Program-made: the position numbers and the translations under genes
Shown: positions 45,579 through 64,000 of the stretch, one piece after another
Position numbering within the stretch: position 1 is the first letter of the stretch
How the letters are laid out: each line of letters opens with the position of its first letter
NCBI RefSeq assembly: GCF_002105155.1
Contig: NW_019028998.1
Span: forward strand, 372,001 to 436,000
Source: Lobosporangium transversale
Taxonomy: Eukaryota
DNA length: 64,000 bases
Direction of reading: 5' to 3'
The notes under the pieces: generated by a model
Databases searched by the model: none
What the model was told of the DNA's origin: nothing
What the model saw: the letters and a program-made list of their open reading frames with translations, nothing else

Positions 45579-45717
45579 GTTTGTTCTATTTGGTTGTTCT
45601 TGCTGATGAGATTCTCCTTGCCAAAAAGTCGTAAACTAATTTATTTTTCAAGATTTTAAATTGAATAAAATACTCCCATTTTTAAACACCGAAAAAGTAC
45701 GTACAAAACTCAAAATT

Positions 45718-47448
45718 TTAATTTTTTCGAAAGCGTTTTCTATTATCAATGAGACGCTCCTCCTCAGACTCACTATCCTCCACTAAATTTAATACGGTTC
45801 CAACATCTTGGACAAGATCCTCTATCTCAGACTCTAGGGTAACGGCATCGGCTTCATCTTGGTTCACTACTCTATCAAGTTCCATGTCCCACTCGTAGCT
45901 GTCCACTCTAATCGTGTCTTCCAAGTCCTCAACAGTCTCCTGTTCATCAGTGGCCTCTTGATAAACTTCTTGATCAAAGGTTTCTGCTTGTACACGACCT
46001 CTCTCATTGTAGTACCTCATACCAATTTTCACAGATTTTTTCCATACAGAGTAGAAGACTCTACAAGGAATCTGGGCAAACAAGCTGAGTAGCCTTTTCT
46101 TAAGTAACAAGGCTGTCATTGTCGTCCTTGCTTCTGAAGCGATTATATTTTTCACGACAGCCCAGATCTTTTCAATAGGCTGTAGCTCGCAATGGTACGG
46201 TGGGATCTTGAGTATTTCATGACCGCCGTTCTCCTGGGCAATCCTGCTGACAGAAAAATACGACTCGTCAGGAATTGCGCTAATCAATCCCATAAGCTCG
46301 TCTTTATTTAATGCTTTTCCATCTTCCCTCGTTGGAATAGCAATATTTTTATCCGCAAGCCATGCTTTGATAGTCGCCACAGTGTCTCTCTTAGTCGGCT
46401 TTTTATTTTCCTTGTGGAAATGATATGAAGCGCCATCATGATGGATTTGGCAAGGTCCAAGTCCCATCTGGTTGAGATTCTCACAAAGTCGTTTAAATAT
46501 ACTATCAAATATATTGGCATTGAAATTCCCATGATAGTCGTGATCCGTGGCTACAACTCCTGCGTCCCTGATCTCTACTGGCACATCGGCCCACAGCTCA
46601 GCCTCCTGTTCTTGGCCTTTCTTCGATTGAGGCTTTGGCCCTTTAGCTGGCCAGACATACACGCTGTCCCTGACAAATTTGCCCTCGACTTTTTTCATGG
46701 CTTCATCATAGTACACAACGAATGCCGCGAATATAACCACCATTGGTTTCCTTCCCGCGTCGTTAACAACGCCACCACGCCTTTGGACCCAACGTCTTGC
46801 TGCAGCATGGTCAATGTGGCAATAGGATTCATCAAGGAAGACCTCTGGCATTTTAGGCACCCAATTTCTGTCAATAAATCTTAAATTCTTGAGGCACCGC
46901 TCAAGGTAAGTTGCCCGGAATGCGACATTCTTCTTGGAGTCATGCAGGAAGTTCTGTCTAACCCCTTTACCCCAATACAAGCCCATTTTATGAAGATCGC
47001 GAGTGATTGACCTCGCTGATCTGCCGATTCCATAGTCTTCTTTAAGTTGGTTAGCGACTATTGCCGCCGAATTAGGGGTCCCAGCCTTGTTTGATTCTAC
47101 TATGATAGACATCACCTTTGAGCTTACATTCTGATCCATTTCTTTCTTTGGGCGTCCAGTTCTTCCACGCTCAGTTCTCTTACATCCCGTTCTTCCACGA
47201 TCTTTGATATCGAGGATGCCTGTGGTAGCAAGTTTAATTGCTGTCAAACAAGCGTTCCTCCCTACACTCGTCAGAGCCGATAAATTGTCCGCTCTATCGG
47301 GAGTTTTCATAAACCACTCTCGAACCGCTTGTGGTGTCTCCTCCGCGGTTATAGCTTTAAAGATATGCGCTATCATAACGTATTCATTACGTGTTATGGT
47401 CGCTTTACTGCGAGTAATTTCATCAGTGTCCTTCTGCTCGTTCGACAA
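45718..47448 (-). CDS. DDE transposase, IS630-Tc1-mariner superfamily (DD87E)
   Basis: HTH-like region (IVANQLKEDYGIGRSARSITRDLHKMG) and catalytic VFLDESY, HHDGASYH, PPYHCELQPIE. The frame stays open upstream to about 47600, so the true start is unresolved. Confidence 0.9.
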   Translation of the reverse strand: MSNEQKDTDEITRSKATITRNEYVMIAHIFKAITAEETPQAVREWFMKTPDRADNLSALTSVGRNACLTAIKLATTGILDIKDRGRTGCKRTERGRTGRPKKEMDQNVSSKVMSIIVESNKAGTPNSAAIVANQLKEDYGIGRSARSITRDLHKMGLYWGKGVRQNFLHDSKKNVAFRATYLERCLKNLRFIDRNWVPKMPEVFLDESYCHIDHAAARRWVQRRGGVVNDAGRKPMVVIFAAFVVYYDEAMKKVEGKFVRDSVYVWPAKGPKPQSKKGQEQEAELWADVPVEIRDAGVVATDHDYHGNFNANIFDSIFKRLCENLNQMGLGPCQIHHDGASYHFHKENKKPTKRDTVATIKAWLADKNIAIPTREDGKALNKDELMGLISAIPDESYFSVSRIAQENGGHEILKIPPYHCELQPIEKIWAVVKNIIASEARTTMTALLLKKRLLSLFAQIPCRVFYSVWKKSVKIGMRYYNERGRVQAETFDQEVYQEATDEQETVEDLEDTIRVDSYEWDMELDRVVNQDEADAVTLESEIEDLVQDVGTVLNLVEDSESEEERLIDNRKRFRKN

Positions 47449-47711
47449 GAATGGGTTTGAATCGGCGGAAATGGAAGACTGCCTGGCTTCTTTCTTTGAA
47501 GAAACACCCTTGGTCCTACGTCTAGGAGGAGTGATCCACCGATATTGTGTGGGATCTTTGAGGTGATCTTCGGGGTGGAGTTGCTGATGTTCCTGAAAAC
47601 CTTAGATCGATAGGGCCTAGCTCGTTATACAGATCACCTGTCATCATATGCGGGCAAGTTATGGGTTTCAGGAGGGAAAGACATTTTACTCCTTGATAGA
47701 TGAGAATATGA

Positions 47712-47757
47712 ATGAGGATGAGGATGAGGATGAGGATGAGGATGAGGATGAGGATGA
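47712..47757 (+). repeat. (ATGAGG)7 microsatellite inside the transposon 5' region
   Basis: Read directly. Confidence 0.85.
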
Positions 47758-48368
47758 AGAATGAGTGATAGTATTGATCAATAGTAATCCATATATTTTT
47801 TTAAATAAGCTCTATTGATTTAAAATATTTGTACGTAAATTTCTTATTTCTCAGAGCTCAATTCAAATTGAGTATTTTAAAAATATATTAGTTTACGACT
47901 TTTTGGCGAGGATGGTTGGTAAATTTTATTCCTGATCGCGTCACTGTAGAGCTTAAGTCCTTCAATATAATTGAAATTCTACATTCGCATTCCCTTCTCC
48001 CTCTTGATCTTGCATGTTGACAATGTAACTGCCGTAACGGATTCGGCCGTCAACAATGTCTCTTCTACTGCAATGTCAATAAAGGATATATGCTGAACAA
48101 ATAGCTGTAGCGTCTCTTTGCTTTCTGTACATCTCTCTATGCCGGTACATTTTGCATCGCGGCGTTTTAAGGCAATTTGTATCGAAGACACAGGCATTTT
48201 CCAAAGGAGCCTCCAGAAGAAATAAACAGACAATCCTCGCCTTCGCTACGACCAACAAATCCCTAGTAGTTTTCCTCTCTTTTCATGAAATATAAGAAAA
48301 GTTCATTTTTGTTTATTCGATTAAATTAAATGAGAATCCATTGACAAGCGGGGCGGACTGTACTTCAT

Positions 48369-50637
48369 TCATGCCTCCACTATACCCTTCCTGCGCTTAA
48401 CTTCCCCCCCCTCCACGGATTCCCGGCCCCTGCGTCTGACCACCCCCTCCCCGGACCGAATTCTCATCACCATATTCCGATAAGGCGTATCCAACGTCGG
48501 AAATGCACTACTGTCTCCAATGTGCTCCTGTCGCTTTTGCTTTAAGCGCTTGCTGGTAAGTCGAACCAATGATTGAATCTGGAATAGCCGGAAGAAAAAC
48601 AGCTGATCAACCGACTTAAGCTCAGATAAACAGATCGGCATTTTGAGGTCTGAGATCCTCGCATGGATGACAGTATTGCCAATCCTTGCGCCAAGGAAAA
48701 ATACTATGTCGTTGCCGATAGACTGAAAGCTTATAAGTGGCAGTTCCTCTTCTAGTTCTGGAAGTAGGTTGTCGAGGCTGTCTTTTGTGAAGACTGCAAT
48801 TCTGAGGGTATCGGCATTCTTCAGCTGCGTCGAAGGGTGCATGCCCTTGAGTTCTCCATAGTATGCTTCATGTCCCTCCTCCGTACGGCCCACAATGTCG
48901 GGGTGCCTAGCTTGTCCACCCTGACCCAAGACAGTTTTCCTGCTCTTGCCCGCAGTCGACATAGCGTTAAGGCTGTTGAAAAGAAATAGCGACAATTAAA
49001 CTAAGGAAGATCAACTCATATATCATATGATATATCGACAATCAGCCAGGGACATTACCATTTGAATTGGACATGGCCTGTAACGTTCATAAACTCACGT
49101 AAAATTGGCGAGATGACTGACAACATGGCATCACTTTCACTTTCAATCTTACTCCATGTGTTATAGTTTCGAAACACATATAGGGCCACAAACAAGATAG
49201 GCAATATATCTTTTTCTTGGCATGCATGGTATGATTCCATTATCAAGTCAACGACTGGCCCGACATCCACCTCGACCTCCTTGGCGTCTCCAAGTTCCTT
49301 AGAGAGGCAGCTCAAGAGATGCATCGATCCCCATTTCTACGTAGTCGGTTAGTATTCTCTTTCAGCTCGAAACAAAGCAAATAAGCAAACAAGAAGTCCT
49401 CAGCTATAACTACAAACCTGGACCCACGTGCCCCATAGTGCAGCTGCCTCGATTGAGCGCTCTACATCCTTCTCTTTTTGCTGGTTGCTATAGAACCGAT
49501 GGAGGACATCATTTGTAATAACGGTAATCTCATTAGCTTGGAACCCAACATGCGCTTTGTTAAGATGCAAGACACCAGAGAGTAGCCTAGATTGATAAAT
49601 TATATACTGATTAGTTTGTATGATTCCGCTCAAACGTGAATTTTATTTGCTTGGATCAAGCTCCTTACGCAATCTCGTCTACTTGTTCGTAGCCCAAAGA
49701 TGTTTTCTCCTTGATTTTGTTGTAGGACTCAGTTATCTGAGGTCCCCAGTCTTTCGACAGTGGGAGACTGAACGTGAATTCCGGCCGCTCCTTGATCCAT
49801 GACATATCTCCACAAGGTCGTCCAAATACTTCATCCTTATCTCCGTTATCTCTATCAAAAACCTCTTCACCATCAGCCTCATTCTCTTCATATTCATCGT
49901 CGCTGCTATTAAAGACTGGACGGGGCGGAGGCGACAGTGTTGGTGATGAAGAGCCCGACCCTAATGGCGGCGTGTGAACAGCTGAAAATGACGGGCGAGG
50001 GCCTGGAGACACAACGACGCGGCGTTGATTGTCCCTATTGGCAGATCCTGATGTATGTAATAAGGTTGCCTGGGCTACTGATTTAGAAATATCAACCGTT
50101 AGAGCTTAGATTTTCCGTAGTAATCTAGCATTCACTGTATTTATACGCACCTTTCTGTCCTCCTAGTTCGACTTCCGTCTGATTGGCATGTGAGGTCAAA
50201 TTGCGGCTTGGAGGCAGGGCCTCAACACCCTGTAAGGACATCTTTAATGCCAGTGCTCCTGTCTTGATGTCGGTCAACACTTGAAGGTTTGCAAGGTTGT
50301 CTTTGGCCGCCAATGTCTTGGCAATCTTCTTTTGCTCAATATCTTGCCAAAATACCTTGATTTGGCCACTCGTTTCGTTGTCCTTCGTCTGCTTCCGAAG
50401 GCGAGTGCCGAGATTTCGGAGCACCATGTCCCGATGGCGGATGAGCCAACTCAACATGTCGGTCCACCACTCTTCCATGCCCTGTTGATGTTCAGGTTGA
50501 GGTTGCGCTTCTCGGAAAAGATCCATCTGCTGAAAGTGGGAAGGATCCTCTAGGTTTATAATGTATAATGAGACGAGGGATGCATTGACGGGACACTTCT
50601 TAGCCCAAGTGATTAGTGCGCTGTTCCAATTGGCCAT
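48369..50637 (-). CDS. Intact 5-exon gene for a lineage-specific protein with a C-terminal PD-(D/E)xK restriction-endonuclease-like domain
   Basis: All four GT-AG junctions are phase-compatible (phases 1, 2, 0, 2). C-terminal RHPDIVG...YYGELKG...DTLRIAVFTKDSLD fits a PD...ExK catalytic motif. Confidence 0.7.
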
Positions 50638-50979
50638 TTCCGTTATGAATAGAGTAGCTGCAAGAGTTAGATGGCTCTAATGGCTATGACCACAAATTTG
50701 GCCCTTTAGTCTCGTCACCAGCTTGAGAGGAAGCGCCTATGTACAGTACAGTACGCTACGTGTACGTGGTGCGAGGCAAATTGCCATTGAAACAGTAGCA
50801 AGGGAGCGGAAGTAAGTGAGAATAAGATGTGGGTACACATCACATCCATAGGATATTTATTCAGATCCATATCAAAGTATAACTACAAGTTTGTCTACGG
50901 GCGCATGTTTTCTGATACACAACCGTTAGTATATATATATATATCTTGTGTATATATTAAGTTTGAAATATGCAACATT

Positions 50980-53924
50980 CAGCATCCCAAGGTCCCCATA
51001 ATCCAAATTCTTTGATCCTATCTGTGTCTGGGACTCCTCGTTCATCCATTGAAAGTACTCATTGTACGTTCCCTTCCAAACACAGGGATAGCGCTCTCAA
51101 CCTCAATCATTCCTTTTTCACGCTTCCTTTTGTTCAACAGGTGATTGAAGCGGAGGACGGGGAGGTACAACCTGCTTCTCACCTTTACCGTTTGCCGCAA
51201 GTTAGGGTTGTGAGGATCCAGGGAGGAAAACGTAAGGGCGTTAACAATACCAGGATCGCATCCGACGATAGTTGTGGTGTTTGCGGATGGGCACCGCCCT
51301 GGTTTGTTGAATGTGAGCTCAACGTTTTCAAGCAGTTTGGAGCTCCTCTTCCAGTTTATGTTTGCATAGTCTTCATCTGTCAGGTCTTCACCAGCTGCCT
51401 TTGAACACGTCGTGTTGAGAAATCCCTGAGAAAGCCCCAGTTCTTGGCTGGGGTCTTCTTCATCTACGTCAGACTGCTGCTGTCTCTTCGTCTGGGTTGT
51501 GTCATAGGCAAGTAGATTCAGAACTAGACCATTGGTAGAAATCGTTCCTTTGAGTTTGAACCGAGTTAGATCTTTGCCCTGTGACTGCAAGGATACTTTG
51601 TCTCGATATCCAAGAACCATGCGATCGCCTCCAATGTCACAAAAGAGAGCCTGAATCAAAACCCCTTTTGTTCCCTGTACACACTCAAACATTGCAGTCT
51701 TGGAAGGATTGTCGAGAGGCAGAATACGCTCTAGTAGCTGCTTGGTATCTTCGTTCGCCCAGAGGATGTCAACTAGGACGTGTTCAGACAGATACACATA
51801 CCCGGGTGGCCAGGGGGACGTAGGAAAGTCTGAGTATTTTTTCACTTTTTTGTTCTCCCGCAAAAAAAACTCAATGTCGCTCATATCTTCGTTTGTTTTC
51901 TCGACATCAAACTAGAAAAAAAAAAAAAAAAAAAAAAAAGTCTGAATAAAGAGCATTTGATTGCAGAATATGCATGAAAATACCCTACACAAGCTATACC
52001 ATTGCGTTCCTGTAGTGCTGCCTTAATGATGTCTGTACTTGACCCATTAGTAGCTCTGACGCTCTGGAAATGAGATCTTTTTGGGATCAAAGCCTTGCAC
52101 GTCCCCCAATGTGATGTCTATTTCCTTTATTGGGGAAAGTTCAGTGGTGGCCTTGAAATATTCATAAGCGAGGAGGTAATGGGGCGTTTCTACCGCCTTT
52201 CCTTGTTTTTTTGCCCTCGCGTAAGCTGAATTGGGGCCACCTTGACCACTTAAAAGAAGGATGGCGAGACGGAAGGAATAATCATTGCTATCCAAGACCT
52301 CGTCCAGTGCCTTTTTCCTCGACTTTACTGCCCCTGGTAACCGCATGATCCTCTCAATGTCCAAGGCAATCGCCCAGTATGCATATCGGCGTAGTCGGTT
52401 GAGGACAACAACTGTCCCTCGGATCTGGCTTGCAATACTATCCCTTTCATCTGCGTCCAGTCCGCCTTTCCTTGCCATGGAGGCCTTAAGAGACCCAATT
52501 GTTAAGGCCTTGATAGGGTGCTTACTGCTGTAGCTGTGATCAACCCTCGTAGCATCCTTCAAGTTCCTAATTGGTGCACCTTCTTTTTTAGCCCTGTGGG
52601 GCTTCTTGCCTTTGTGCTTCCGCTTTTGTTTTTTCTGTTGCTTCTTTTTTGCCTTTCTCCGACGTGGTGGATGCTTAAGACCCGGCCTATCGTGCTGACG
52701 GCAGTTACTGATATCAACTGTGCGCCCATTCAATATGCTCGCCTTGTCAGAAAAGATGGGCCGGAACTGGTTCCTATGTGACCCTTCCGCTATATAGAAT
52801 GATGGTGCGCCTCTACATTATCCAAGAAAGGGACTAACGATTAGTATTGGGATGTATGGTTTCAAGGCCAAAACTATAGCTTGAGCTTTCTTACGTTCTG
52901 CGGCGCTGCGCTCGCCTTTGCTGAGCCATTCTATGGCGAAGATCCTTTCCATTGAGTAGACGCTGCTTGAAGTTATCGAACTCACTGTTCAATGGTAATG
53001 CTTGGGCCGACGTTTGATGGCCGGAAGTAAAAACGCGGAGAGCTACTCTGAAACGGCCTTCTTCAGAGGCTGCGTTCCTTCCCAACACCTTACTAGCTTC
53101 CCTTAGGTAGTCCCGAAGCATTTTATTGTAGTTCTCGTTCCACGCAACCTTTCGAATTAATCGAAGATTATTAACCGGGCCTAACGTCTCGAGGTTCCTT
53201 GAGTAGTCATTGCCTGCGATGGCACAGAATAACACCAGATGCGCGTGTGATGGCAGTCTTAGTGCTTGGATAACGTTGCCTACATCGTAAACCCCAAACT
53301 TCCGTCTACGGCGCGGAAGGGGTCGCACTAGGAAGCAGACCGTTCGTACGCAAAAAAATCAGAGTCTTGGGATATCACGATTCTATCATTCTCCTCATTA
53401 TGGCACCCTATACATGGGTCCGCTTCATATGCACACAGACAGACATCGAAGACAGAGCTAAGGCCTGTTGTCAGCTGATCCTTGTCCTGGGCGCTCAGGG
53501 TGTGGACTTCTCGAAGACCCTTCTGGATGCGCCTCATGACTTGAGGGCGAGTCCATACCCCACTCCGAGAATTTCTCTCGAAGGTGCTCATAGCGTTCTC
53601 CAAAGCATCCATATTTTTTTCTGTTATGACTTGCCATTCTGTCCTTGCTTTTTCTTTCTAAGGTTCCCCATCAATATGTATAGTCAGATTGTCCGTTATG
53701 AAAAGATCCTTTATCACGAGAGCCAGGGACCTTCCTACATCAATGATGGATTCGTTTTTCATCTTTGCATGGACGACTCTGCGGAGGATGTCGTAATAGA
53801 ACGTACCGAGGAGATCTACATGAACAGAATGGTCAGGGTTTGCCGCCAAGAAAGTGCCCACGTCAGTTTCCGAAGGTAAAACCCCGCGATCCGCAACCAG
53901 TTTGAAGAAGGACTTCAGCCCCAT
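50980..53924 (-). pseudogene. Disrupted 3-exon gene: N-terminal XPG/FEN1-like nuclease fused to a C-terminal TnpB/Fanzor-like region (RuvC-I present, RuvC-II/III missing)
   Basis: XPG motifs MGLKSFF, VHVDL, IHIDG, YEADPCIG, ISQDSDF, AGNDYSRNLETLG. In-frame introns 52813-52894 and 51912-51999. C-terminal LKGTISTNGLVLNL and IVGCDPG. In-frame TAG at 53658-53660, frameshifts near 53340, 52065 and 51075, and 3' truncation. Confidence 0.72.
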
Positions 53925-53984
53925 GGCCAATATCTAAGCGAAAGAGAAAGAAAAAAGGAAAAATGGTGGCGATGAAAAGAAATG

Positions 53985-54019
<35 letters not shown>

Positions 54020-56909
54020 GACAAAGGTATAAAAGGATGAGCTTTTTTATATTGAGGAAAAGATACAGGAACAAGTGGCAGTGGTAAAAGGGATGGGACT
54101 TTGAAGGAGGAAGACAATGATCCCTTTTTATATCCTGGATTGATTGAGTTTTATCATTGTCTCATATAGTTTTGATATCGATCCTTTGCTTCACAGGCCA
54201 CATCAATCTTTATTCAGTTCCTTTGTTTGGATTGGGGTTTTGTTCAAGTCAATAGCAGAGATTGACAAATAAATACAAGCTCTCGTATGAACGGCAGATT
54301 GGAAACAATAGCATTGAGATACCAAAGTGAGCATTCGAAAAAATCATCTCCAGATACAGCATACAGTGTCGATGTCGATCCTTTGTTACATAATTTTTTT
54401 TTTTTTTCAGTTTCTTTTGTTTGCACTGGCCCTTGCTTTGTGCTTTGTGAGGAATTTAATGAATAAAAGAAGATTTATAATTTTGAACAGGGGTAATAAA
54501 TGCCTCGGTGATTATATCCTTGTCAAAGGTAACAACTAAAGAAAAAAAAGTCTTTTTTATCAGAGAATGGCTTCATATGATGCTCTTTGCTCCAACAGCC
54601 CCAGTACTATTGCGTTAAAGCAGAGATATTCGTTGACTCTCAGATTCCGGCATCAATGGCGGAGATAGGAGTGATGTAGTTGCATGCGCTTATTGCTTGG
54701 AGTAAAAGCTATCTAAGCACCCTTTCTTACTGGACGATGCCTTGTTAATGGTGATATTGCGCAGCGCCTTGTGGATGGAGGGAGAGCAGAAGCGAGAGTG
54801 GTGGTTTTTGGCGGTCGTTTGGTGTGTGTATGTGTGAATTTGATAGTTGATATCAATCGCCAAAACATATGCATCTAGAAATACAGAAGCGAGATTGATA
54901 CCGACGCGTTTGATCCTTTCCTAGGGATTGTTATAACCATGGGATGATTGTGGAGTGGCCGCCAAAATAAAGTTTGTTTGGAGGCACCAATGGAAAACGC
55001 TTGTGTTTTGAACAAAAAAAGACGTCGCGATGTAAAATGTGTTTATACATGTACAGAAACTTAAGAGATGCTTCAGCTGCTTATTCGTGCACACAGTGAT
55101 TGACGAACAAAAAAGGAAAAAAAAAGCCCGCGATGAAAGAAGGCATGTGCAGACAACAAATAAACACAGCTCACATACATTTTTTTCACCGTTGTGTCTG
55201 TATCTCTTCTAAGCTTTCTGTCTAGCCGTTTAACACAAGGAACCCTCAGAAAAAGAAATACCTCGCATGATTGGTGCCAGGTCTGAAAACAACAACAATG
55301 CATTGCTGTACGTGGAAGATAGGGTCTATAAACTATACCATTGATCACAACCGCTACCCATGCTCTCTTGCCAAGGACTTTAACAGGCATAGCAGCCCCT
55401 TCTTCCTTGCTCTCATAACCGCTCACATCCTTTCGATGCATTCTTTCGCCATTTATGTCCACTACATCTGAACCACACACAATTCACCACTCACTCCAAC
55501 AGAGATATTTGTATCACCTTGGGTATGATATGTTGCTGTGGTTCCCTCCGGTTTCAACAGGCCCAACAAACTCTATAAGCTGTTTACCAAGCCAGATATA
55601 TCAAAGGAATGCAAGAAGACGAGGAAGCGAACGATGTGACAAATCAAGTCTTGCCGAGCTGTACAAGAAAAGATCAAGTTAGTCAAGCTCCATGGTGCGG
55701 AAGAATGGTTCCACTCAGATTGCCCTCCTTTCAAGTCGATACTACGGCAGCGAATATTATCGCTGTTATATTACATCAGTCAATAAATAAACGATACAAT
55801 GGACTCCCAAGGGGATGCTAGGGTCATGCGAAAGTCTTTCTTTCGATGTCGAAATAAATGACCGAAAACTAAATTGTCATGGAGCTATCCTGGCTTCTTT
55901 ATTTGTGCAAATAAAAAACTCATGAAATTTCAAGACAATGCCCATGGATTGCTGGCAAATTTGTGAGTCCCCTTAGATACTCAAGTTAGCCAAATATGCG
56001 ACAGCGACACCCTTAAACAAAAAATAAAAGTTATTTCATGTGGGTCATGTGAGCCAAAATATATATGGAAGTTCACTCTAACCTGTCTCTAAGTCCATAA
56101 TCATATGGGAAAACCATATATAAAAGTCAATTAAATGAACCTCAATCCAAACCGAACTTTGGATAATGCCAAAAGACACTAATATAAAGCGATATAGAGT
56201 AATTGAAGTTTCTGAAGAAATTGAGTATCCGTAGTGACATAAAAACCCAAGTGTAGCTTGGTAGACACTTGTTTAAAAAAATGTTTCGTTGAAATTAGTA
56301 AAAAAAGCAGAGCTCTATGATAAAGCCTTCAAACTTCACCATATTTTCAGATTAAAAGGACATGTCAATGCTGAATCCAACTGTGGTATTTTTACAGCGA
56401 CTTAGTTTACAAAAATAACCATCCTTACTGTTTAAAGATGGAGGAGAGACTATAAATTCCAGAAATTACTCTATTTAGAGAATTCAATGGGCATATTCTT
56501 GACAACCGCATTGCTAGTTCCTTGAAGTGCATATACATGGCTTATAGATATAGCTTTTGGGTACCAGAATCTATATTTTGCAATGTGTATCGCCATTACT
56601 GACAGAGTGATATTACTTTTGAACGAAATAAGATGTACGTAATCTTGAATATTTTCAATGTACAAGTTCTTTGAATGGAGGTATCTTACTGAAGACTTAA
56701 CCGAATCTTCTCAAGTTTTTTTTTAAATCGTACCAATGGATCTTACCTACAAAATATATGGTTTTCAGTCTTGTAGATACTCTATCTCAACAGAGAATGG
56801 ATTTCTTTTTTTCATTGTTCTGTATAAAAAAAAAAAAAGAAATCCTGATTTCTGATTGGCTATTTCAATTGTGCTCTCTTTGATTGAATTGGGTTGAATA
56901 GTTTTTTGA

Positions 56910-59634
56910 TCAAATATATACATGTAAATATTTTTTTTTTTGGCGCTGCCGTTTTTGGTTCCCAGATGTATTTATCGTTCTTTGTAAAGAACAAAACCGT
57001 TCAACTATATCACTTAATTCCCTTGCTGCGTCGGAACTTCTCACAATGCTATCTGAATCATGGAGACTCTTTTTGAGTATCTCCAAAGATTCAGTAACCA
57101 CATCAGCAATCCTCTCCGCCTCAGCAACCTCCTCTGCTTCAGCATCCTCTACCTCCAACAGAGCATCACTCATGCTGGGGTTAACATTCCCTTCCAGGCC
57201 ATCTTGAAAACTCTGGATCATAGCATGTCTATCAGGGACCCTCTCAAGGACATCATGTATGATGTGGAGTGGTGGGTCTGGGTTATCCTTATGAACTTGA
57301 TGCAAAAGATACATATGTCTGCAGGGGCGCTGAAAATACATAAAGTACTGACAGTTACATCTTGAGATAGTTTCATTCGTGGCAACCACGAAATAATATC
57401 CGCCAGATACGGAGAACGAGCGCACACAGTAAACGGTTCGGTCTCCCACTTGCTGCTCGTGAACAATGCGCTGTGGAAGGTCTTCTAGACCATCTAGAAA
57501 TTTTCTTTGGTGAAAGTCATCTCTCTCGCCTTTTAAATGTTGCCCATAGCGTCGCACAGTCTGCATTGCCATCATTTGGTAAAACTCATCTACATCATGA
57601 GTTAAGATATAAACCAATCTATCTCCCCTGCAGTTTGTATAACCTCGTAAGAAGTGCGACTTAAGGTGGTTGTGCCAGGACTCGACGTAATTGTTAGTAT
57701 CCATCCCGGCATAAAACTTTCCCATACGATAACATTTCATCCACCTTCTCCTTCGGTCTTCACTGAGGTACCGTTATCTAAAATAATTCCAGACTTTGCC
57801 CTGATTATGATCCTGCCATTTCAACTCGAATTCTGAAATAAGAGTCTCAGCTCGCGTACGGTTTGGATCAAACAAAATTCTACGGAGCTCCCCCATCGCT
57901 TCCTCCCTCAACTCCTTAGCTGCCTTGTCTTGCGTTGCACAGATAACATTTCGAAGCTTGGTGCTCCAAGCTTTCATAACATGCCATAGACATAAATGAA
58001 CTGTGACTGAGTCTCCAAACGCCAATCGGATTGCTTTGTATTCTGCTCGAGCATCATCAGTGGTGATGTATTCAGGAGAGCCAATGGTTTCTCTGATATG
58101 TTTCAACCATTTTGCCAACGGTACATGGCTATGATCGTTCGTAAGCAAGAAGGCAACTGGGATAGCACTCAGACTTTGTGGGTTCCGCACAATTATGGTG
58201 TAAAGCTGGTGTTTAGAGCGATTTGTTCCATGCGTTGAATCTAGCCCAATGTGTTTAAAATTGGATCCATAAACTGATTTCTGGAACGGCGACATAAACC
58301 CATATGCAAATCTTGCATGATTCACCCCGTCTATTATGATGTGGTAGTCGAGCGTGAATACAGTGAAGCCCTTGTCCTTTAGTTTGTCCATCCAGAGCCT
58401 CATCGAGACTAAGTCATTCTTTTCAAGCTGATTCTGCCCACTTGAATATTTATAATAAATATTGTACACATCCTCATACTTCAGGACATGGTCACGCTGC
58501 AAAGACCCTCTTTGGTGTCGCGAAAATGCCTGGCTGCCAGACAGGTTTATCCTTGTCAGAATCTTTCTTGTACAGAGACCTAAACGGACAAGGTTTCGAA
58601 TTCGTGATTTTGTTTCTTCTGTCACTCTGAGATGTTGAAAGACCTCGAGACTGGCAAGAGTATGCCCAGTGTGCTTGTAGTAATATATCACACGCAGCTG
58701 GCTCCTTTCTCCTCTACTTGCGAACTCTTCCATATTGGGTTTTACGTCATGAACAATTAGTCTGGCTTTACAGCCTACTTTCTTGGTCGGTTTATAAACA
58801 TTGCGAGTTTTCTTGGCTGGCCTCTCAAGTAGTTGATCTTGGTCAGCAATCTTTTTTTTGCGTGGGGCGCCTGCACAGTGGCAGAAATAAAGTTGAAATG
58901 AATGCAGTTTGCCTTTGCTATCATTGTCGTTGATGATTTCAGAGTCTTCATTGTCTTCATTTCTACCATTTATCTCAGAGTTGCCTTTATTCCAAATAAA
59001 AAAGTGATCGCTGCCATCTCGATCCTTCCACAGTTCAAAGTCTCTTTTGTCCACATAGAATACGTGCGGCAAATAATCGTAGTCCTGTTTTTTAATCCTG
59101 AGGCCATCAACAATATCCCTAATCTTAGCCTCTGGGACCATCGACTCAATCCAAGAGTATTCTTGTAGCTGCGCAGACACAATTGTGGAAGCCAGACTGA
59201 TTGCACGAGCCTCCTCATCTTGACTCAACCCCGATATATCCTCTACTTCTTCTACGTTATTTTCAGATGGCGCCTCAACGAAAGTTTTCTTAAGAGATTC
59301 TGTTGCGAGATCATTCCCAGAGGTATTGTCTTCACCGGATGGTTCAACTGGCCCCCACACTATTTCTGGCTCGGAATCTGACACATCCGAAGAATAGTCT
59401 TCACCATCATCACAGTCGTGCTCTTCAGGATCCGTATCAACGTCGGTAGCTTCATCATGATCGTAGAATTCGAAGCCTGGCTCAAGGACCTCTTCAGTTG
59501 CATCCTCACCGTTACTCGAGGCAACTAAGGTATCAGTAGTGAGGACCTATAACTTGCATTAAGAAAAATAATTAACTATAAGCTAACGAACTAATCGAAA
59601 TAGCTAGCATGTTCGTGATATTTATAAATACCAT
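56910..59634 (-). mobile_element. Mutator-like (MULE/MuDR) transposase gene with SWIM finger, inactivated by one in-frame stop
   Basis: YFCHCAG...GCKARL...HTGH DNA-binding region; catalytic LDSTHGTN, ITTDD, CLWH, TNNYVESWHN; SWIM CNC...PCRHM. TAA at 57774-57776 is followed by in-frame RYLSEDRRRRWMKCY. TIRs not identified; 5' exon structure approximate. Confidence 0.88.
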
Positions 59635-60288
59635 TGTGGAAAGGACGGCTATCTCAGAAAGGAAGACAGAGAGTTAGAAATGAAGTAGGCTAATTTGAAT
59701 TTACGCGTTTTTTTTTTTTTTTTTTTTTTAAAAAAAGTAAAAAGGTTACCTGGGACAAGAGATGGACTACAGAAACACGAGAAGGGCCTGAATGGAGTCT
59801 GCAGGAGAGCTATCCTGACATAAATAAAATGGGTAATGAGCGATGGAAGAGGATTAAATGGCGGTGATTCGGAAGTATCAACTGGCAGAAAGGGATGGAT
59901 TTAGCAAAAAGCCTACTACGTCACCTCATTATAAGTTATAACTAAAAACCTTGTGACGGACGAAGGGATAAGCCACACAGCCTGGTGACGAACCTCCTTT
60001 CATCAGCACACCAACTCATTCCTTACAGCAAGCAACATTTAGAAGAGCTGTTTGCTCACTACAGACGACTTACTAAACAGTCTTTCTCTTCTCTCTTTTC
60101 TGTAGCCATAGCCACATGAATACTTGGAAATACCTGGCAAAGGAAGAGGACAGGACAGTAAGTGATGGAAAAATTTATACTAATTCATATTGATCATCAG
60201 TGCTGGAGACATAATTGAGGACTCATTCACATTTTCCTCCTCGGTCTTTCTCTTCATCATAGTTACCTCTCCTTTCATCTAAGGCACC

Positions 60289-60508
60289 TTGCTGAGCATT
60301 GAGTCCCTGCCTATCTGGATGCCGCTGAGCATTTGCTCCCCGCATCTGGAGACGTCGCCCAGGACGGTTGGCACGGACTATGCAACTCTGCCCAATGGCT
60401 ATGCAGTCCTAGCCGCTGATCTTGGTTCCACGGCAGTTGGAGAGATACCAATGAGTGAGAGGGACCATATGGTTCGTCGAGCTCACCCCGCACTGGGGTA
60501 CTCAGCGA
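60289..60508 (+). ncRNA. Putative structured ncRNA, unit 1
   Basis: Terminal stem TTGCTGAG/CTCAGCGA; several internal hairpins with G-U pairs favouring the + strand. No known family recognised. Confidence 0.45.
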
Positions 60509-60531
60509 ATTCTTTCTTGTCCTTGCGTATT

Positions 60532-60800
60532 GCTGAACATTGAGTCCCTGCCTATCTGGATGCCGCTGAGTATTTGCTCCCCGCATGCCGCTGAGTATTT
60601 GCTCCCCGCATGCCGCTGAGTATTTGCTCCCCGCATCTGGAGACGTCGCCCAGGACGGTTGGCACGGACTATGCAACTCTGCCCAATGGCTATGCAGTCC
60701 TAGCCGCTGATCTTGGTTCCACGGCAGTTGGAGAGATACCAATGAGTGAGAGGAGCTACATCGCTCGTCGAGCTCACCCTGCTTGGAGTGGGTGTTCAGC
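60532..60800 (+). ncRNA. Putative structured ncRNA, unit 2
   Basis: Terminal stem GCTGAACA/TGTTCAGC; compensatory variant hairpin GAGC-TACATC-GCTC at 60753-60766. Confidence 0.45.
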
Positions 60801-60831
60801 CAAATTTTGATGTTTTACGCAATGGGTGCCT

Positions 60832-61073
60832 TTCTGGATATTGAGTCCCTGCCTATCTGGATGCCGCTGAGTATTTGCTCCCCGCATGCCGCTGAGTATT
60901 TGCTCCCCGCATCTGGAGACGTCGCCCAGGACGGTTGGCACGGACTATGCAACTCTGCCCAATGGCTATGCAGTCCTAGCCGCTGATCTTGGTTCCACGG
61001 CAGTTGGAGAGATACCAATGAGTGAGAGGGACCATATGGTTCGTCGAGCTCACCCTTCATTGGGTGTCCAGAG
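60832..61073 (+). ncRNA. Putative structured ncRNA, unit 3
   Basis: Terminal stem TCTGGATA/TGTCCAGA, followed by T-runs (TTTT, then TTTTTT). Confidence 0.45.
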
Positions 61074-62439
61074 TTTCATCTCTTTTGTCGCTTTTTTATC
61101 TATCGATTTTTATCCGCCTGCTTTCTTTTTTTAGTAATGGACCGTGGAAGCAAGATCACGTTGCAAGTAAGCATTGACTGCTATAACGGTAGAGCCGGCA
61201 GAAGAGATCAACCTAGATGCTTGTCTGCTAGGGCCATGGGCTCACCACAGAATCCTTCTTTTGGTCTTTCTCCTCCTCCGTTCATTGTAATTAGGAAGAC
61301 AACCAAGATTGTTCAAATAACATATGAAATACTGTTCACAAACGAGACGAATGATGCATAATTTAGCGTCTTCAACCAAAATGAATAAAAGTCTCTTCTA
61401 CATTCGTCACTCTAAAATAACGTTCGGGATTCAGCAAGTCGAGCTGTAAAAAGACTCCGATATCTTATCCTAATACATAGTCCACGCATAAATCCTCGTC
61501 TGAAAAACTGCTTCCTCTAGTTCTTAAACTAAAAATAAACCTCAATATAAGCGTTATCCCATCTTATTCAACTTGGCAACCTCTTAATATTTTTAATTGG
61601 ATTAATCTAATTTGCAGCCTAGGTGCCAAATATAATGAATTTAGAAGACTCTCTTTGGCAAACCAGTTGTCAAGGAACACCCTCATGATTTGCTTGGCAA
61701 CCTATCTAGTGTTATTTGACCTCTATTTCTTGTTTTTCTGTAAAATTCTCGTATCTTGTTTACTGAGAACTATCCTGTGTTGATGAGAAGCACAGGAGTT
61801 CCTGTTGAACTTGTTGACATCCAACAAAAAAAGGTTTCAACGAGCTTTTTGATCGTGACATTCATCTATAATCCAGTGACAGTAACGGCTAGAGGTGCGT
61901 CAACATATTTATACGATCCTAATGCTTCCTGTCTTTCGACATTTTTATTTAGAGGAAGCCCGCCGATTAAAAGCGAGTTTTAATTGAAAGACTGAAATAA
62001 GGATAAAGCTATTTGCGCGACTCGTACACCCCTTATTTGTACCACCCCCGTGCAAATAAAAATAAAAACTATTTGCAAGGCGTCTTTATTTCATCTACAA
62101 GCGGCAACGTGTATCCTACAGACTACATTATTCTAGCTTTTTTATTTCGAATGAAATAAACAAAGATGAGTCTAGAGTAGTCTAGAAGTATTACTGTTGG
62201 AAGTTGCAGTGCCGTAGGAGCCGCGATACTCATCGCGTTCTGTTGCATATTCCACAGTATGCAATATTATGGTAGAAAAAAATTAGGGTAAAAAACACTA
62301 ATGCGCTAAAAAGATTAGCAGTAGAAATTAGTGGCAATAACGCGCCACACATAGACGCGATAAATCTTTGATTTGAAGTTTTTAAAACGAATTTTTGTCA
62401 TCCTATAGATAGATACGTAATTACCTCCACCAGAAAATG

Positions 62440-63611
62440 AATAAATGCCCCATGGGTGTGATGTGTAGACCCATATCCTGTTCTCACTTACTTTTCTATC
62501 TACAAAATATTTTAACGCTCTATTCCGCTCTACAGTCACCCGAAAGAAAGTCTGGTCAGAGTTTTTTTTTTTTTGAATTCCTGACAAGCAGCTCATTTGT
62601 GATATACAAAAATACTTCACCACCCAAGATGGAATTTACACTTTTATTAATGAGGCCAATGTGGATAATCACTGAAGTTTTTGGGCAGTACATGCTGATT
62701 GAAGAGTACTTCTCTTTAAAATTTTATTTTTTGAGCAAACTTTCTTTCAGGTGATTGTACAATATGAAGCTCTACATGTGCTGCTGAGTATGCGACACTG
62801 CGTGCTTCAGACGACCCAAGGCAGGTTCTGACTATTTTATTGGTGAAAAATCAACCCTGATAATAATAAACTTGGAATGTAATGAGACAAAAATAAGGAT
62901 CTTTATCAATGTAACAAAAAAGAGTGTTTTGGTCTCTTCGCTATCACTATTCTATTAAAGTATTTTAGCTATTTAGATATAGGGATATAGGTAATTATAG
63001 CACGATCGGCTTTGAGTGAGAACTGCCACCAACTATCAAAAGATTAGTAATCTCTCGGGTTACAAACGGGTGAGAGGATAAACATTCCACAAAATAAATT
63101 GAGGTCTACCCATTGCATTTTGGTGAATTTAAACAAAATTTAGTACCGAGGAAACACACTCAAACGCGTCGCTTCTGTTAAAAACCATGTTGTAATCTAT
63201 ATTTCTGTATGCATATATTTTCTCAACTATCCAATTCACACACCCACACATCAAAAGATTGCCCTCTTTCTCGCTCTCCCATCCATCTACAAGACGCACT
63301 GTACAACATCACCAACAAGGTACCACCCAGCAAGAAGAGGGTGATTAAATAGCTTTTACCTCCAAGCAATAAACACAATCAACAATGTCGCTCCTATTTC
63401 CACCATTGATGCCGAAATCTGAGAGCCAATGAATATCTAACGCACGCAAATGTACTGAAGGTGTTGAAACAAAGAGCAACATCTGAATCCATTTTCTGAT
63501 AAAAATAAAACAGTCCATGCATTCACTGATGAAAAGTTTTTGGCAGACAAGATAAATAGTAGAGTAAGAACAAGATGTAGGTCTACATACCATACCCATG
63601 GGGTATTTATT
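62440..63611. repeat. Old 49-bp inverted repeat pair about 1.07 kb apart (possible TIR relic)
   Basis: 62440-62488 matches the reverse complement of 63563-63611 at 41/49 ungapped positions; all 8 differences are transitions. Confidence 0.7.
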
Positions 63612-64000
63612 GAAGTTTTTATCATATTTATCAGAGCATATTAAAAGCATAGCTACAGGTCTGTGTACGAGAAACATAGAGAGAGGTATGTTCAGAAAAA
63701 GTATAAAATGTGCGTCATTAATACAGGATGAATGTCCATAAGCACAAGAAAAGTATTTTCTTTAATCTTTTATGCAATGGGCGCCCTGTAAAGAATGCAA
63801 CAACTGTCTCCATCCCTGTGAGAAATTATAATTTACTATTTTCTTTCGACCTTGAACGTAACTCAGGCAAAGCATTAGATTTTCCAACAAGACAAGAGCC
63901 GACCGCGGCGAGGCCATGATCTTTGGCTCGTTTATTTTATTTCTTTGGCATTTATAATATCATGAGGTTTTATATGTGCTGTGCCTTGTGTGTATACTTG

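Follow-up and report, generated by a model that had tools for sequence, protein, structure and literature searches.

The window analysed here, a stretch of 64,000 nucleotides of Lobosporangium transversale DNA, carries on its minus strand a dead copy of a likely mobile gene in which an EXO1-like 5' nuclease is joined to a Fanzor1 protein. In the reading that we favour, with a probability of roughly 0.55, the intact protein would cut a site specified by RNA and resect the break, and repair would then copy the element in. The Fanzor part is already catalogued (as FZ1, Saito 2023), and its fusion with an EXO1-like head is apparently new within the literature searched. The interest of the family lies in its intact relatives, the copy in the window being itself dead.

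The broken gene of the window

Five short open reading frames on the minus strand (53658-53933, 53328-53657, 52891-53358, 52047-52817 and 51042-51911) had been joined by a first-pass annotation of this DNA into one gene of about 900 codons with two GT-AG introns, and this structure is borne out. The minus strand from an ATG at 53924 down to 51001 forms a single spliced gene with some 918 codons (exon lengths summed down to 51001), whose exon phases (phase 2, phase 0) close once the indels of the other copies are put in. Exon 1 (52895-53924) encodes the EXO1/FEN-like 5' nuclease domain, recognized from its motifs, the family alignment, profile matches in the PDB and the fold of a relative: the MG start is followed by VDLLG (53825-53805), IDG (53681-53667), YEAD (53429-53418), SQDSD (53372-53358), GNDY (53214-53203) and then an H2TH-like segment. 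Intron 1 (52813-52894, 82 nt, phase 2, GT..AG) is skipped exactly in one contig of the public run X7, which we guess to be RNA. Exon 2 (52000-52812) comprises a Lys-rich linker (52655-52602), by its composition a putative NLS, and the start of the Fanzor body. Intron 2 (51912-51999, 88 nt, phase 0), in a stretch where the reads break off at a repeat, is predicted from its GT..AG ends, its phase and a junction as in the L. transversale paralogue P0169. The remnant of exon 3 (51001-51911) holds WED-like strands (LKGTISTNGLVLNL, 51554-51513), an acidic insert, TIVGCDPG (51272-51249), in which GCDPG is the DPG-like motif with the RuvC-I aspartate, and a bridge-helix-like basic helix (51140-51111), these domain names being taken from SpuFz1, the match that Foldseek gives for a relative. 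Two of these motifs had been placed at 51528-51548 and 51249-51269, and the feature had been extended to 50980; both are corrected here, homology to the relatives stopping at 51001.

Contigs of four public runs were aligned to 48500-54370 at 85% likeness and allowed the lesions of this copy to be located on the minus strand. An in-frame TAG (53658-53660) lies where other copies have 6 more bases, and a first frameshift (53340-53341) consists of 1 base fewer than in the other copies. The latter have 1 extra base at about 52064 (second frameshift), 3 extra bases at 51168, where the window has thus lost three, and 1 extra base at 51069 (third frameshift). As the stop codon and the indels are absent from the other copies, they are particular to the window copy. 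The stop and two frameshifts had been noted at first pass; the frameshift at 51069 adds a third to that count. Past 51001 the other copies run on and translate to the same region as the paralogue P0097, while the window copy continues into about 100 unrelated bases with a (TA)n run (50903-51000), which stand in place of RuvC-II, the zinc finger, RuvC-III and any 3' guide RNA region; the other contigs diverge from the window sequence both at 51001 and at 50902. The C-terminal Fanzor1 motif (C4 ... RD) is deleted after 51001, and none of 166 proteins compared matches the window outside 50900-54000, so that the window nowhere encodes RuvC-II, the zinc finger or RuvC-III. The copy is a dead pseudogene, as had been recognized from the letters at the outset.

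Two nuclease domains in one chain

A Pfam scan of the window's pieces found neither half, with only XPG_I_2 at E 0.07, and a single-sequence phmmer search against the PDB returned low-complexity matches only. The last exon matches four longer Mortierellaceae proteins. The Mortierella alpina protein KAF9574392 (P0002, 1186 aa) can be aligned with the window copy throughout, starting at codon 1; past the break it continues with HEYFTS, a C4 zinc finger and RD, where Pfam Cas12f1-like_TNB scores above cut-off. An HMMER search with KAF9574392 gave 920 representatives at E ≤0.001 and 98 at 1e-30, of which the best 150 were examined. Long members occur in Mortierella, Entomortierella, Dissophora, Actinomortierella, Linnemannia and Benniella.

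Both motif sets are present in one chain in KAF9574392, P0006 and P0007. Among 173 proteins, 23 of the 24 relatives of at least 900 aa match both domain profiles, a fraction which is no estimate for Fanzor1 overall as the query used to collect the relatives was itself fused and favours fused matches. The relatives are mostly automatic gene models and many database entries carry one half only, as would be expected if gene prediction or nested insertions had fused two nucleases that are in fact separate genes. That account is largely refuted and we consider it very improbable: the nuclease precedes the Fanzor part in all 34 two-domain proteins, the probable RNA contig of run X7 joins the exon 1 head to the linker and Fanzor body of exon 2 in the expected phase, and the distances of head and tail co-vary (Spearman 0.68 over 151 pairs of 18 proteins, a value reached by 0 of 2000 permutations). 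Such co-variation would be expected of a unit inherited together and argues against independent nesting, but no further than that, because kinship alone yields it.

The fusion appears, from its sequence motifs, to extend beyond Mortierellaceae to chytrids and a basidiomycete. The Synchytrium protein P0140 matches both profiles (E 9e-16 and 1e-51), and the portions consulted of the Saito 2023 table list FZ1 rows with the same head motifs, judged by eye from the first 400 residues, for many Mortierellaceae, two Synchytrium entries and Tilletiopsis PWN96948. The ESM Atlas contains a 58-member cluster of Mucoromycota (1312 aa, TNB domain, score 0.98). Four metagenome loci cover the Fanzor half only. 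Two metagenome proteins, P0110 and P0157, are full-length and divergent; their two active sites are kept and the C4 zinc finger is absent. When a profile was built from 13 divergent members and searched, it recovered a single member and a single XPG-type protein. On viral contigs, 0 of 69 candidate stretches match the head profile, and a viral fold library yielded Fanzor-like and FEN/XPG-like matches separately from each other.

The head has a FEN-like PIN fold with a helical arch and an H2TH/H3TH segment. A profile of 18 N-terminal sequences retrieved 29 sequences from the PDB, FEN1, Rad2, EXO1 and XPG chains, over residues 1-270 with E from 4e-7 to 1e-5. A model of the head alone (P0027, pLDDT 90) ranked human EXO1 first in a wide structural search (Z 20.7, rmsd 3.4, 284 residues aligned), followed by FEN1 (18.1), XPG (17.7), GEN1 (15.5), Xrn1 (14.6) and T4 RNase H (10.8). 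By modelled structure EXO1 therefore seems to be the nearest of these to the head, although Foldseek ties EXO1 (E 6.6e-11) with FEN1 (2.9e-11); the identity of the head is about 14% to EXO1 and 13-16% to the human enzymes of the superfamily. The head had at first been called an XPG/FEN1-type nuclease, which names the right superfamily and misses EXO1 as the nearest member. In an alignment of 139 sequences, the head columns, which we take to correspond to numbered residues of human FEN1, are D or E in 40/41, 50/51, 56/61, 61/61, 63/65, 63/65 and 68/71 of the covering rows, with the arch K in 51/53 and the arch R in 54/54; all seven acids are kept in 14 of the 23 long members.

These features also bear on what the head does. 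Instead of a long-range resector it may be a flap endonuclease acting on branched intermediates, which would remove the R-loop's displaced strand, or 5' flaps arising in integration or repair, and so leave clean ends or short deletions. Helical-arch K and R serve in flap threading, and in this family they are nearly invariant; Foldseek moreover places FEN1 just before EXO1. The lead of EXO1 by 2.6 Z units in the wide structural search, together with an E-A-D motif presumably nearer to EXO1 than to the E-A-E of FEN1, makes a flap endonuclease the unlikely choice, albeit one that deserves weight. We give clearly less credit to a role in RNA processing, in which the head would trim the element transcript from its 5' side and release a mature guide RNA. 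The superfamily does include RNA nucleases (Xrn1 and T4 RNase H among the structural matches above, and herpes vhs according to the sections consulted of PMC5499597), and Fanzor guide RNAs derive from the 3' end of the element transcript, as stated in the portions of PMC13565253 available. DNA-specific members nevertheless score clearly higher, and solved Fanzor1 proteins (about 600-730 residues) match the tail only and work without such a head, so that RNA trimming is improbable.

The tail had been assigned to the RuvC region of TnpB/Fanzor proteins, and profile and fold searches agree with this. A profile of 21 C-terminal sequences matched ApmFz2, TranC, TnpB/Cas12f and SpuFz1 in the PDB, the best being ApmFz2 (E 3e-8, about 65 residues). 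Foldseek with the full-length AlphaFold model of the relative P0006 (pLDDT 86.7, pTM 0.66) returned SpuFz1 (E 4.7e-12, TM 0.60 by target), FEN1 (8e-10), PpFz1 (8e-9), then EXO1 and GtFz1 (1e-7); with a pTM of 0.66 the model does not reliably show where the head sits with respect to the RuvC site. The Fanzor motif is described in the sections consulted of PMC3627910 and PMC13565253 as D-X(n)-[TS][TS]-X-X-C4-X(5,50)-RD, the catalytic E preceding the zinc finger by six residues, and the motif is found in P0002, P0006, P0007 and the paralogue P0169. The intact homologues sought at first pass thus exist, with a 5' nuclease and a Fanzor in one chain ending E-x6-C4-RD. Assignment to the Fz1 clade rests on look-up in Supplementary Table 1 of Saito 2023 (PMC10432273), where 2 of 6 accessions sought occur, both as FZ1: KAF9574392 is FZ1 there, and the sequence of P0005 and two L. 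transversale entries are likewise FZ1.

In the 139-sequence alignment the RuvC D, E and D are present in 73/78, 40/43 and 36/42 covering rows, and the catalytic columns of both domains are conserved in 86-100% of covering rows. Among the 23 long members the RuvC triad is kept in 12 and, by alignment columns, all ten acidic residues of both sites in nine; at least one catalytic column is missing in the other 14, mostly through gaps in gene models. A motif count by regular expressions (4/23 complete) overlooked true variants such as HLDG and was replaced by the alignment columns.

Known systems and a proposed role

The family resembles Fanzor1 (SpuFz1, PpFz1, GtFz1) in its DPG-type RuvC-I, the E six residues before a C4 zinc finger, the RD and the fold, as well as in residing in a dispersed repeat (PMC3627910, PMC10432273 and PMC11423790, in the parts consulted). 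It differs in having some 330 additional N-terminal residues, a domain in which the 5' nuclease active site is complete, and in its length of about 1050-1500 aa, where the solved Fanzor1 chains have about 600-730 modelled residues. With EXO1, FEN1 and XPG/Rad2 (PMC5499597) the head shares the fold, the seven acids, the arch K and R, the H2TH-like segment and the N-terminal MG, whereas its low identity to the human enzymes, its multi-copy state and its fusion to a Fanzor set it apart. The segment from RuvC-II through the zinc finger to RuvC-III is like that of Fanzor2, TnpB and Cas12f, but the ApmFz2 match is short and the whole-fold match is to Fanzor1. Engineered Cas12/TnpB-exonuclease fusions likewise combine a guided RuvC nuclease with a 5' exonuclease; those are artificial, whereas the fungal fusion is natural and conserved across fungal phyla.

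Descriptions of an EXO1-like head fused to a Fanzor were not found in the literature searched, although an unread supplement, a subscription paper or Repbase may note one. The parts consulted of PMC10432273, PMC10530073, PMC10312701, PMC3627910, 10.1101/2023.08.09.552727, PMC11423790, PMC10691335, PMC13565253 and PMC5499597 make no mention of it. The Saito 2023 table mentions 'Mortierella' 84 times and 'XPG' never, and 'RuvC' and 'TnpB' are absent from the main text of the 2017 classification of FEN-like PIN domains (PMC5499597). Fanzors are said to carry extra domains often, with fig. S1B cited for them, in the sections of PMC10530073 consulted.

The most likely role of the EXO1-like head, conserved on one chain with the Fanzor, is to resect the guided break and so tilt repair toward copying of the element; a coupling of guided targeting to resection had been suggested at first pass. 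Reasoning from the studied Fanzor1 proteins, the 3' end of the element would yield a guide RNA, and the Fanzor part would make a staggered double-strand break at the DNA site specified by it. EXO1 resects 5' ends, giving 3' tails for recombination; by analogy with its biochemistry, the head would degrade the break 5'-to-3' and leave 3' single-stranded tails. Resection would then steer repair from end-joining to homing or gene conversion, and the element would be copied by homologous recombination. The studied Fanzor1 proteins are RNA-guided and cleavage by SpuFz1 leaves 5' overhangs, according to the sections consulted of PMC11423790. For OMEGA nucleases, PMC13565253, in its portions consulted, describes a restorative-homing model, with homing into the empty site, which requires an excising element.

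Homing after excision is the leading idea of what Fanzors do for their own elements. In this large Fanzor1 branch, where the 5' nuclease looks active and is part of the same chain, the question can be tested directly, since each active site can be inactivated separately and the repair outcome measured. If the proposed activity is real, the family would provide a natural guided nuclease with end processing built into its single chain, of use for large deletions and homology-directed editing. We more tentatively entertain a wider possibility, that these genes form a widespread class of fungal self-spreading elements in which one protein makes and resects an RNA-guided break and which multiply by recombination without a transposase of their own; such a unit would resemble a gene drive, occurring naturally in eukaryotes, and would supply an editing enzyme that cuts and resects as it stands.

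Copies and surroundings of the gene

Eleven L. transversale proteins, spread over 10 contigs, match the window at 62-96% identity in their best segments, and this dispersal suggests that the fusion gene is likely a mobile element. Most of these paralogues are visibly broken or partial, and P0169 extends from the MG start through the zinc finger and RD. In runs X1 and X3, individual contigs on the gene have a depth about 14-21 times that of the unique flank, a rough indicator that gives no copy number. In Linnemannia gamsii six members fall in one 90% cluster. These copies bear on a further account, in which the fusion promotes no copying and acts as a guided shredder that destroys rival elements, viruses or the empty alleles of other nuclei; it may have been domesticated for host defence. 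A cut followed by an exonuclease gives long deletions in principle, and the family, which reaches chytrids and a basidiomycete, is a large and old one (with the whole query, 920 representatives at E ≤0.001). The L. transversale copies behave as a dispersed, decaying repeat with many broken members, unlike a conserved single-copy host gene, and we regard shredding as quite unlikely compared with the copying of the element.

Multi-copy cover, as seen in the contigs of the public runs, continues into the 5' flank (53925-54370, minus strand) up to the last bin compared (54370), so the element's 5' end, not found up to that point, lies further upstream. Terminal repeats, a target-site duplication or a linked transposase could not be established around the gene in the window. 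An inverted match between 50810-50863 and 62438-62493 was considered as the terminal repeats of an 11.7-kb element including a MULE gene and was rejected, because a third copy at 63558-63669 belongs to a separate dispersed repeat. This non-coding repeat family (68-84% alike) has blocks on both sides of the fusion gene, at 50810-50899, 62434-62493 and 63558-63669, and in the pairs 54554-54925 with 63146-63505 and 48075-48222 with 54973-55104. The MULE transposase gene itself (56910-59546, minus strand), with a SWIM finger, consists of two in-frame ORFs split by one stop and lies on the same strand, 3 kb upstream of the fusion gene. It is possibly the partner transposase of the latter; Fanzor1 has been found in MuDR-like elements of Mucorales (PMC3627910, in the part consulted).

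Other features of the window include a Tc1/mariner-type element (45615-47912), with 52-nt inverted repeats (83% complementary) and between them an open 627-codon frame with a DDE_3 match, and three tandem units of about 290 bases (60287-61071), 85-98% alike and with short repeats inside each. Rfam gave no match in 49500-64000. The only related 3' flank examined (L002) folds no better than its shuffles (z +0.51); its sole stable element in the predicted fold is a short perfect hairpin (2376-2394) at the stop codon of the related gene, followed by A and U runs. Directly downstream of the fusion gene lies a single-copy host gene (48369-50811, minus strand), in which four introns are skipped in run X7 and which has a 660-codon open stretch once spliced; the three ORF pieces of it that were scanned have no Pfam match. 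On the plus strand, 329 bases between 50811 and 51141, bounded by GT..AG, are missing from one X7 contig, which has 30 letters on its short side and faintly suggests a spliced antisense transcript entering the element.
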